Positions 13,001-16,000 of a stretch of 64,000 nt of DNA are shown one piece after another. This DNA is from Podarcis liolepis (taxonomy: Eukaryota), in the NCBI GenBank assembly GCA_965112155.1, contig OZ218101.1; one strand, 5' to 3'. Position 1 is the first letter of the stretch, and each line of letters starts with the position of its first letter. The notes beneath the pieces are model-generated. The model saw nothing but the letters and a program-made list of their open reading frames with translations, did no database searches and was not told where the DNA came from. The translations under genes and the position numbers were made by a program.

Positions 13001-16000
13001 AGTCTGTGGCAAAAATTAGATTCCCTTATTCTACAGTGGGTACGGGGAAGATTTGGGATCAATGTAGTTAGCTAGGCAAGTCTAAGTAAGCTGCTGATTG
13101 ATGAGCTGTATATTTGGCTTGAGTAATAAAGCTACTTAAGTAACAGTGCAATCTGTTGTAAAATGTGCTTGCATCCAAGCAGAATAAGATAATGGTTTGC
13201 TCATTTTGAAAGTTATGGTAATCATGAAGTCAGGCAGTGATTCCTGTATTGAAATGTCTACTCCATTATCAGAGTCTGTGTCAATAAAGAATGTGTAAGG
13301 GAGTGGCCCACACACATTATGAAAATGTAAAATAAATGGTGACTGTATACCCGTACCATCATCTTGATTGACACTGGAAGCAATTTTCAGTAGTTCCTGT
13401 ATACTCTCTAAATCTGCTGTGGAAGTTTCCTTAACCCTCTAGAGATCTAGGAAGGATGTGGTGGGATGTAGAGCTGATGGAGTACTGGTGAAAATCCTCC
13501 ACATTCTACTAATGGAAGCCTTACGGTCAGCTCATTGACATTTTTTTGTTTTCATAGCTTGGTACAATCCGTTCTACTAAGTTGGTGGCTATACCATGCC
13601 CTGAAAAACCCTATGTGTAGCCTGTAACCATCAAGCCTGTTTATGGGGAAGTTTGAACACAGAGCTTTGTCCAAGGATTCTTGAGCTTTAAGCTGTTGGT
13701 TGATTAAGCTCTTAATCTCCTGCTAAATTGTATCATGATACTCTAAAAATTCAACCCTCCAATGCTATAGGGGAATATGCTGCATTAATAGTGTCTGATC
13801 AACTACTAAACTTGGGCTGCAATCCAATACTCATTTACCTGGGAGCAAGTTAGTGTTTTACTCCATGTGGCTTAATTCAAATAGGATTGAAGTGCTGGAG
13901 AACATCAGGTCTCATCCCTCTCCCAACCTGTGACAGCTTGTCTTGGCTCAGATGCCTCTGCAAAAATTACCTTGCTTGTGGACTGGCAGGGAGGCACCAA
14001 GAATACTTTTCTAGAGAATACTTTTTACTTTCAATTGTGATCTTTCAGCATTTTAGCTTAAATCGGCTTCATGGGTAAAAGCCAGAAACTAATTTACTGT
14101 GACTATAAATCGGTTTGTTGGTAAGTAGCTCTCCAAGTTAATAGAGGTCTCTCCCTACTTTGCTGCTAGAAGTCTTTTAAAATAGGTGTGAGAACCTATG
14201 GCCTTCCATATATTGACTGGTCTACAACTCTGGCCGTTCTTGGCTGAAGGGGATAGGAGTTGCAAGTCCAGCATCTTCTGGGATGCAGGTTTCCAAGCCC
14301 ACTTTAAATATCTACAGATTGAATATTGTGTCCTTTATTGAACCATGATCTCTGCACAGTTCAGCAAAGCGGTCTGGAAGTGCTACTGAATTTGGGGGCA
14401 GGGAAATAATGTACAGATACTACTTTTGCAAGTATTCTAACTGCTAGATAGGAAGGTTTAGGTATAGGGTGCTTATTGTCAGGACAACTTGACTCTGCCC
14501 ACTTTGTTGCTCAACTGATAGAAGTTGTGAATAGTGGCAGAACAAGGGGCATAAGATGAAGCTTGTTCAAATTCACAGATTCTAATTTCTATTCAAAACT
14601 AACAGCTCTTTGCAAGAAAACTCAGTTGTATTGGGGCTACCAAATACTGAATGGCATTGATATCCAGCTATTTGTAGTTGTCCTTATCCCTTCTCTCGTG
14701 TAGGTATGGATACTGTAAAGACCAATAGAGTTGTTGTATCGTAAATCCACAGAAGCTCTTATCGCAGTTGGTCAAGTATGTCACAAGTTCCTTTATTTTT
14801 GCAACAGACTGATACAGGTGCCTGTGCCCATTTGGAAGTTGTTGCCTCACAAGGACATGCTTAGAAACATTGAAGAGTGATTCCTGCTGCTTCCAAGGAC
14901 TACCCAACACAAGAGGATAGGATGAACCTTTCCCAGGGGAAAGCTTATTCACTCTCATACACATATGGTTCATTCTGAGTTCCTCTCAGTAGATCCATAG
15001 AAATTAATGGACCTAAGTTAGCCATGTTTGTTTATTTCAGTGGGTCTACTATGAGTAGGACTAGGACACAACCCTTAAAAGCAGCTGTACAAATTATTGA
15101 GTGTGACGTTGCACAATACCTGTTGAATCAGATGTATTGCCCTTTTCTTGAGGGAAAGGACTCCTTGTGTTGGACTGTTTGGAGCTGTTGAGAGTTTATC
15201 TTGGCTTCTCAGGGTGTCTTGACCTGGTGAGAGGCTGGCTCCTGCCATTCCTAAGTCCTCTGTACATGTGCTTTGGCAGCAGGACGGGGTTCCCCTATCC
15301 TGGTCACCAGGAGGCAAGAGAGTGCTCTTGTTCCCCTTCCCTCTCATCGCCAAAGGTGAGCTGGTGAGTGATTGTGAATGTGGAAGCCTGGAAAGTTGAC
15401 ATCTTCACACGGATATTTTTATGTTGCTTGAGTAAAATATCTTTTACAGGTTGAAGAAATTCTACTGTACCATTATGTTGAGTTTTTTATGCATTTGAAC
15501 TGGATTGAATTATAATGCTGGGAGTTTTATGGCTCTTTTGCAGCAGGTAATGCCTATAACTATGCGGCAAACTACTATTCCAATTCGATGCCACCAAGAA
15601 GCTGTAAGTTGGTGTCAGGATGGAGTGGTCTTAAAAAATTGTCATTTGAGAGCATGCCTCTAAGCATATTGCATAGTTATAACTTGCAGTCAACTAACAG
15701 TGTGAGCATTTGTTCCTTTACGCTCATTGTCAGGCATGCTTCCTTTGCCTGCAACTTTAACTTTTTTAGGATTAATTTGAATACAGTAAACCCACAACTT
15801 ACACACGGTTAGCATTCAGCTTTACATGTGTGGCAAAAAATAAAAAGGGAGCGGGGTTCAAGAAAATATTTATTTGGAAAACGCTATTGAACCCAATGTG
15901 TTTTGAATTTGGCTTTAGGTGCAATCCCTGGAACGTAAATTCTGCATAAGTTGCGGGTTTAATCTACTGGCTTACTGTGTTTAAGGAAAACTACACATTA

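Follow-up and report, generated by a model that had tools for sequence, protein, structure and literature searches.

The analysed window is a stretch of 64,000 nucleotides from the lizard Podarcis liolepis (assembly GCA_965112155.1, contig OZ218101.1). It carries a complete DDX3X gene on its plus strand, with the start codon at 10022. Isoform X2 of DDX3X from Podarcis raffonei matches the window gene exactly, in whole codons, at 734 of 736 residues. The match includes a 60-nt exon in intron 3, designated exon A, and residues 52-71 of the isoform map to positions 15543-15602. Exon A preserves the reading frame (phase 1-1), is flanked by ...ttttgcag upstream and gtaagt downstream, and takes the first G of its reading from exon 3. 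The introns on either side of it are short, 2.7 and 3.2 kb. A second optional exon, exon B, lies between exon A and exon 4 (Table 1).

Table 1. Exons, splice sites and candidate regulatory motifs around exon A of DDX3X in the window
Feature	Position	Strand	Remarks
Exon 3 (51 nt)	12751..12801	+	Upstream partner of exon A; encodes the YIPPHLR segment; last base G, phase 1
Conserved intron flank 5' of exon A	15484..15543	+	Matched by back-translated Pogona and Pelodiscus peptides
Tandem acceptor CAGCAG	15541..15546	+	Exon start at 15544 (with Ala) or 15547 (without Ala); sequence and cross-species proteins
Donor-like CAG/GTAATG at the start of exon A	15544..15552	+	Possible recursive 5' splice site
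Exon A, 60-nt phase-1 cassette exon	15544..15603	+	Last base T; sequence, Podarcis isoform and cross-species proteins
Donor of exon A, GTAAGT	15604..15609	+	Exonic side, GCT, non-consensus
GCATG	15652..15656	+	49 nt past the donor; presumed RBFOX-type core, no leading T
Bipartite element TAAC-N9-ACTAAC	15680..15698	+	Presumed QKI-type; sole such pair behind the 16 donors examined
Second GCATG	15734..15738	+	131 nt past the donor; presumed RBFOX-type core
Exon B, 132-nt phase-1 cassette exon (SPSWDSRGG...RDDR)	18840..18971	+	Begins AT; partner that keeps exon A open
Exon 4	19943..20069	+	Begins GA; direct join to exon A reads TGA at codon 72

A sequence-only reading of this DNA had proposed a 60-nt in-frame cassette exon here, and its boundaries, length and phase agree with the present map, as do both acceptors of the CAGCAG tandem and the exact positions of the two GCATG motifs and of ACTAAC (15693). 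Skipped forms are also annotated. The donor, described there as consensus, is so on its intron side; the exonic side, GCT, matches at 0 of 3 positions, as it does in the constitutive exons 2, 5 and 6 of the same gene. The exon is not 'hidden', as that reading had it. RefSeq predicted isoforms of squamate DDX3X, such as X1 and X2 of Podarcis raffonei (XP_053242872.1 and XP_053242873.1), already contain the same exon with the same boundaries and peptide. These models are automatic, and the records examined state neither a tissue, nor a function, nor the stop that arises when exon B is skipped. Exon B and this stop did not figure in the earlier reading either. In the open-access literature, which leaves most subscription papers out of scope, no published description of exon A was found.

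Several other features of the gene were observed. Two consecutive introns begin with GC (CAG/GCAAGT at 22569 and AAG/GCAAGT at 22954). An alternative donor at 25430-25475 lengthens exon 12 by 45 nt and so places 15 extra residues within the helicase core of isoforms from the lizard and other reptiles. Exon 3 is skipped in some models from Lerista, sterlet, newt, caecilian and honeyguide. A 48-nt zebrafish ddx3 exon, probably the counterpart of exon 3, is listed as Esrp-enhanced (PMC5703972). An exon-like stretch at 15280-15363, 180 nt 5' of exon A, has a CAGCAG acceptor and two donors, AAG/GTGAGC (15355) and CTG/GTGAGT (15363). In phase 1 this stretch is frameshifting or stop-bearing, and it is used by no isoform in the protein set; it holds a five-residue match to a crocodilian insert that is not significant (E = 0.046). 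The intron after exon B (18972-18985) opens in frame with GGRG, the same residues that start an optional extension of exon B in fishes, lungfish and coelacanth, and this stretch is possibly a decayed alternative-donor extension.

Three protein searches (5 of 6 candidates; 54 of 142; the best 120 of 443) and three cluster look-ups (at most 15 members listed for each) gave 319 proteins, of which 297 with an exon-3 anchor were classified and 22 were set aside. These proteins are automatic models, those of related species are partly dependent on each other, and they display in-frame forms only, so that both the conservation of frame and the missing class of A without B are partly built into the data. 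Homologues of exon A, 19-22 residues long, were found in predicted isoforms from 45 gene copies of 43 species: 25 squamates, 5 turtles, 1 newt, 3 caecilians, the coelacanth and 8 ray-finned fishes. Both gene copies keep the exon in the eel, and so do both in the sterlet. Relatives of the peptide in sauropsid, amphibian and fish DDX3, which the sequence-only reading had suggested seeking, therefore exist as protein models. Its statements on other vertebrates also held: an AGNAY-type insert is present at the same junction in sturgeon, paddlefish, eel, tarpon, soldierfish and toadfish, and the nine mammalian proteins fetched lack exon A.

Both strands of the window contain 676 open AG..GT phase-1 mini-exons of 57-66 nt, and when these were scored against 15 exon-A peptides from non-amniotes exon A came first. 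Its mean score was 22.9, against a background mean of -11.9 (sd 5.4) and a best unrelated candidate of 8.1. Because the first rank was obtained with non-amniote peptides alone, the likeness between fish and lizard goes beyond chance. Exon A is almost certainly a real exon, and the comparison of predicted proteins places it in the common ancestor of bony vertebrates. That ancestor lived about 430 million years ago. Isoforms that include exon A and isoforms that skip it are predicted in the same species (Podarcis, Lacerta, Anolis, Sceloporus, Gekko, Python and others); since the skipped forms exist too, the exon is a cassette.

The peptide is almost invariant across squamates, and its internal length changes are whole codons. 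Across vertebrates its middle shows little conservation; between fish and lizard the length, the phase, both ends and the final T are kept better than the middle. Among the proteins fetched, frogs, axolotl and crocodilians lack exon A and have other inserts in its place, and it is missing from the longest models of several turtles. A metagenome scan for orthologous reptile DNA gave 0 matches to a 26-nt acceptor pattern. The single match to exon B, one locus of 597 stretches, was rejected as a chance, out-of-frame hit on a bacterial contig.

Conservation extends into the intron upstream. Models from Pogona and Pelodiscus start in the intron 5' of exon A, and their back-translated peptides fit the 60-130 bases upstream of the exon in the window; background tiles score as well in 0 of 1984 and 4 of 902 cases, respectively. 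The beginning of these proteins (P0122, P0123 and P0206) just 5' of exon A hints at retained-intron transcripts or an internal start.

The exon starts with Ala in 36 of the 45 copies. The other nine (5 turtles, 1 caecilian, 2 eel entries and the tarpon) are without it. Both forms occur within one species only in the coelacanth, where one of the five exon-A isoforms lacks Ala. All 43 squamate exon-A isoforms keep Ala, that is, they use the first AG, and snakes, whose peptide reads AYN, would have no second AG. The sequence-only reading had taken the tandem acceptor to give isoforms with and without Ala. Such a pair exists in the coelacanth; squamates show one form, and elsewhere the choice is a difference between lineages. 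Judged from the proteins, plus or minus Ala is an ancestral option and not a demonstrated lizard event. A 3-nt microexon made with the donor-like sequence inside the exon was also considered and rejected, as no such isoform exists among the 319 proteins.

Exon B has a particular relationship to exon A. Exon A ends in T and exon B begins with AT, and the join between them reads Tyr. If exon A is joined directly to exon 4, the split codon reads TGA at codon 72; all other joins are open in this genome. Exon A itself is free of stops and becomes terminating only at this junction. The TGA was read in this genome alone, the first two bases of exon 4 being unreadable in the other reptiles. A stop arises fairly often by chance when a T-ending exon joins a partner, namely for 3 of 16 dinucleotides.

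The predicted proteins agree with such a dependence. Among the 297 anchored proteins, all 80 that contain A also contain B, 108 contain B only and 77 contain neither. Six squamates have consecutively numbered isoforms, 43 in total (8 each in Anolis carolinensis, A. sagrei and Sceloporus, 7 in Gekko japonicus, and 6 each in Lacerta and Rhineura), and these fall into the same three classes, never A without B. The stop-bearing form cannot appear among proteins, and the missing class therefore fits decay of the transcript and simple co-regulation of the two exons alike. Of the 45 copies, 44 have Tyr at the A-B junction and the coelacanth has Cys, from which it follows that the final T of exon A has been kept throughout. 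In the coelacanth all five exon-A isoforms insert a further exon between A and B. Exon B of this fish appears to start with a Glu codon, and a direct A-B join would then be a stop.

The two exons belong to a larger set. Exon B is present in fishes, coelacanth, lungfish, amphibians, squamates, turtles and 9 of 9 crocodilian proteins. It is absent from all 15 readable bird proteins (5 more have no anchor) and from 9 of 9 mammalian proteins, and exon A is likewise absent from these 15 and 9. Short unrelated inserts occur in 4 of the 15 bird proteins. On the accepted tree this absence in birds and mammals, as read from protein models and not genomes, implies that exon B was lost twice, in both endotherm lineages. 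The birds represent 15 of the 460 members of a bird-led cluster, and the sample was drawn without monotremes, marsupials or palaeognaths. Other cassettes occupy the same junction: one of 24 residues in frogs, axolotl and coelacanth, one of 26 residues in the coelacanth and one of 22 residues in crocodilians (P0174, P0175, P0169 and P0022). A search of intron 3 of the window with 15 peptides did not find the 24-residue frog, axolotl and coelacanth exon or the 22-residue crocodilian exon (best E = 0.028-0.046, as expected by chance). The camel model P0202, in which a short insert after exon 3 is followed by exon 4 out of frame, is probably a model error. Flounder Ddx3 is reported to have 18-19 exons, and the portion of that report used here gives no splice forms (PMC4528332).

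RBFOX and QKI sites downstream of an exon usually promote its inclusion in muscle or nerve. The two GCATG motifs behind exon A, which we take to be RBFOX-type cores, read AGCATG and GGCATG, and no TGCATG occurs within about 200 nt downstream. The ACTAAC motif has a TAAC half-site 9 nt 5' of it, presumably forming a bipartite QKI-type site (consensus ACTAAY plus TAAY), and no other such pair stands behind the 16 donors examined. Two GCATG and one ACTAAY within 200 nt were found in 3 of 614 background tiles and 17 of 5000 shuffles, a nominal p of about 0.005 for motifs picked post hoc. The constitutive exon 14 of the window gene is also followed by two GCATG. The motifs are suggestive of RBFOX/QKI control. 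RNA structure over 15480-15780 is ordinary, with z = -0.48 and 30 of 100 shuffles equally stable.

Exon A belongs to a known kind, the conserved frame-preserving cassette exons in disordered regions. Neural microexons (of the SRRM3/4 type) measure 27 nt or less, or up to 51 nt by a wider definition, and exon A at 60 nt is above both limits. A class of such cassettes is tissue-regulated and carries RBFOX/QKI sites downstream. Exon A resembles its members in being short, symmetric and conserved together with its intron flank, with motifs 49-131 nt downstream. It differs in that its GCATG motifs lack the leading T, its regulation is a candidate one, and its junction codon can become a stop. Exon 7 of Eya3, reported to depend on RBFOX2, is an example of the class (PMC10665822). 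The supplement of a zebrafish Esrp study contains a single ddx3 exon, the 48-nt one, which that study pairs with a human DDX3Y exon of equal length, and no exon A (PMC5703972). Twelve of the 18 supplement files of a zebrafish Srrm3 study gave 0 matches to exon A (PMC9303857).

The two exons lengthen the disordered N-terminal region of the protein. The predicted lizard forms are one without an insert, one with B only (44 additional residues) and one with A plus B (64 additional residues). Across these three classes the N-terminal region contains 2, 5 and 10 Tyr, and its Arg count rises from 18 without an insert to 27 with A plus B. The binding site for eIF4E in human DDX3X is reported at residues 38-44 (PMC7903766). 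By its position, the YIPPHLR segment of exon 3 would be this site in the lizard, and the exon A insert lies a few residues past it. Arg and aromatic residues of the DDX3X N-terminal region are reported to bind structured RNA (PMC12394722). The four Tyr to which the sequence-only reading drew attention are found in 22 of 25 squamates, but they are not the conserved feature of the exon, as turtles have 2-3, fishes 1-3 and the 4 amphibians 0-1. Better kept are an Arg two residues from the end of exon A (41 of 45 copies) and an R-x-x-S-P sequence at the A-B junction (34 of 45). The latter resembles what we take to be a DYRK/CLK-type phosphorylation site, as a prediction.

Yeast Ded1p, of the same helicase subfamily, offers a comparison for the disordered region. 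Its heat-induced condensation is reported to be tuned to growth temperature and modified by the N-terminal region, and the protein without this region has a lower onset temperature (PMC7237889). In fungi the assembly temperature is reported to be set by the helicase domain and not by the disordered region, the tuning consisting of substitutions, mainly in the helicase domain, and not of splicing (bioRxiv 2022.10.11.511767). Since the onset fell when that region was removed, additional residues would not necessarily favour condensation, and together with the role of the helicase domain this means that 'more stickers, more condensation' is not assured.

Taken together, exon A is probably an ancient regulated cassette, belonging to a group of optional phase-1 exons that are clustered in DDX3 intron 3 and shape the N-terminal disordered region. 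The optional exons would set the length and make-up of the disordered N-terminus just past the eIF4E-binding segment, and the lizard would make the three forms described above. A transcript joining exon A to exon 4, if made, would be removed by nonsense-mediated decay, and exon A could then only add to exon B. Inclusion of exon A would be a minority, cell-type-dependent event driven by the downstream QKI/RBFOX-type sites. The added residues may change RNA binding, condensate behaviour or phosphorylation, leaving the helicase core untouched.

An alternative that is unlikely, yet the most serious of those considered, is that exon A acts mainly at the RNA level, as a conditional poison or retained-intron switch setting the dose of DDX3X, with the peptide a nearly neutral filler. 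The better conservation of length, phase, ends and final T than of the middle would fit this, as would the conserved upstream intron, the TGA on the exon 4 join, the stop that joining B would probably create in the coelacanth, and the three models (2 from Pogona, 1 from Pelodiscus) that begin just upstream, as retained-intron transcripts would. However, the near-invariance of the squamate peptide, the whole-codon length changes and the annotation of A-plus-B protein models in 43 species all argue against it. Poison exons are a known class in genes for RNA-binding proteins, and exon A resembles them in that one exon combination terminates translation early, with many junctions still far downstream. 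A dedicated poison exon would normally contain a stop within itself, whereas exon A meets one at a single junction, and there only if B is skipped. Chance can be dismissed almost completely: all models are automatic, and a random AG..GT stretch might have spread between annotation pipelines, but diverged and still alignable copies stand in register at the same junction in 43 species, and the first rank among 676 candidates was reached with non-amniote peptides. It is also very improbable that exon A is spliced in and then removed through a recursive 5' splice site, so that 'skipping' passes through inclusion. The sequence CAG/GTAATG at its start agrees with the U1 consensus at 7 positions, one more than the exon's own donor (6), and 36 of 45 copies open with (A)G and then N, S, T or I, amino acids for which codons starting with A exist. 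Yet the site is impossible in snakes (AYN) and Varanus (AAN), the flanking introns are short, and no lone-Ala isoform occurs among the 319 proteins, in which zero-length use and the third codon positions of other species are invisible. PMC6224609 describes RS-exons that the exon junction complex represses, as well as cryptic donors close to junctions; exon A is like RS-exons in having a donor-like sequence at its very start, and differs in that the site is missing in snakes and Varanus and no product is found among proteins.

A further explanation, which is rather improbable, turns on body temperature: in ectotherms it would decide the splicing of A, B and the sister exons and so tune the condensation or activity of DDX3X, and birds and mammals would have lost the exons independently. 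The distribution of exon B, with its two implied losses, would fit this, and the reported behaviour of yeast Ded1p is in line with it (PMC7237889). Carp ddx3 is reported as one of the hub genes with thermally differential splicing and skipped-exon events, the exon not being named there (PMC11448050). On the other side, two losses are a sample of two, the bird and mammal sampling is narrow and an exon missing from protein models may still exist in the genome, fungal assembly temperature is set by the helicase domain (bioRxiv 2022.10.11.511767), and the motifs that follow exon A suggest cell type instead. A broader version is equally doubtful. Here the intron 3 cluster of the ancestral bony-vertebrate DDX3 would be a spliced rheostat ordered by split codons, which ectotherms retune by tissue and body temperature and which birds and mammals each discarded, human DDX3X being the fully skipped form.

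Under the preferred reading, that of an ancient regulated cassette, what may be new is the age of exon A, its dependence on exon B, set by a stop codon split across the junction, and the cluster's seeming disappearance from birds and mammals. If the existence of exon A alone holds, it is an ordinary conserved cassette exon that is already in the databases. DDX3X has been studied almost only in its mammalian form, which matches the form with neither exon. The annotations of lizards, turtles, amphibians and fishes include longer forms, having up to 64 residues more behind the eIF4E-binding segment, and these isoforms supply naturally occurring variation with which the role of the disordered region can be probed. 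Work on DDX3X disease in fish or amphibian models should allow for isoforms that may be expressed there and are absent in humans. The cluster also offers a direct test of whether the two endotherm lineages lost the same splicing module.
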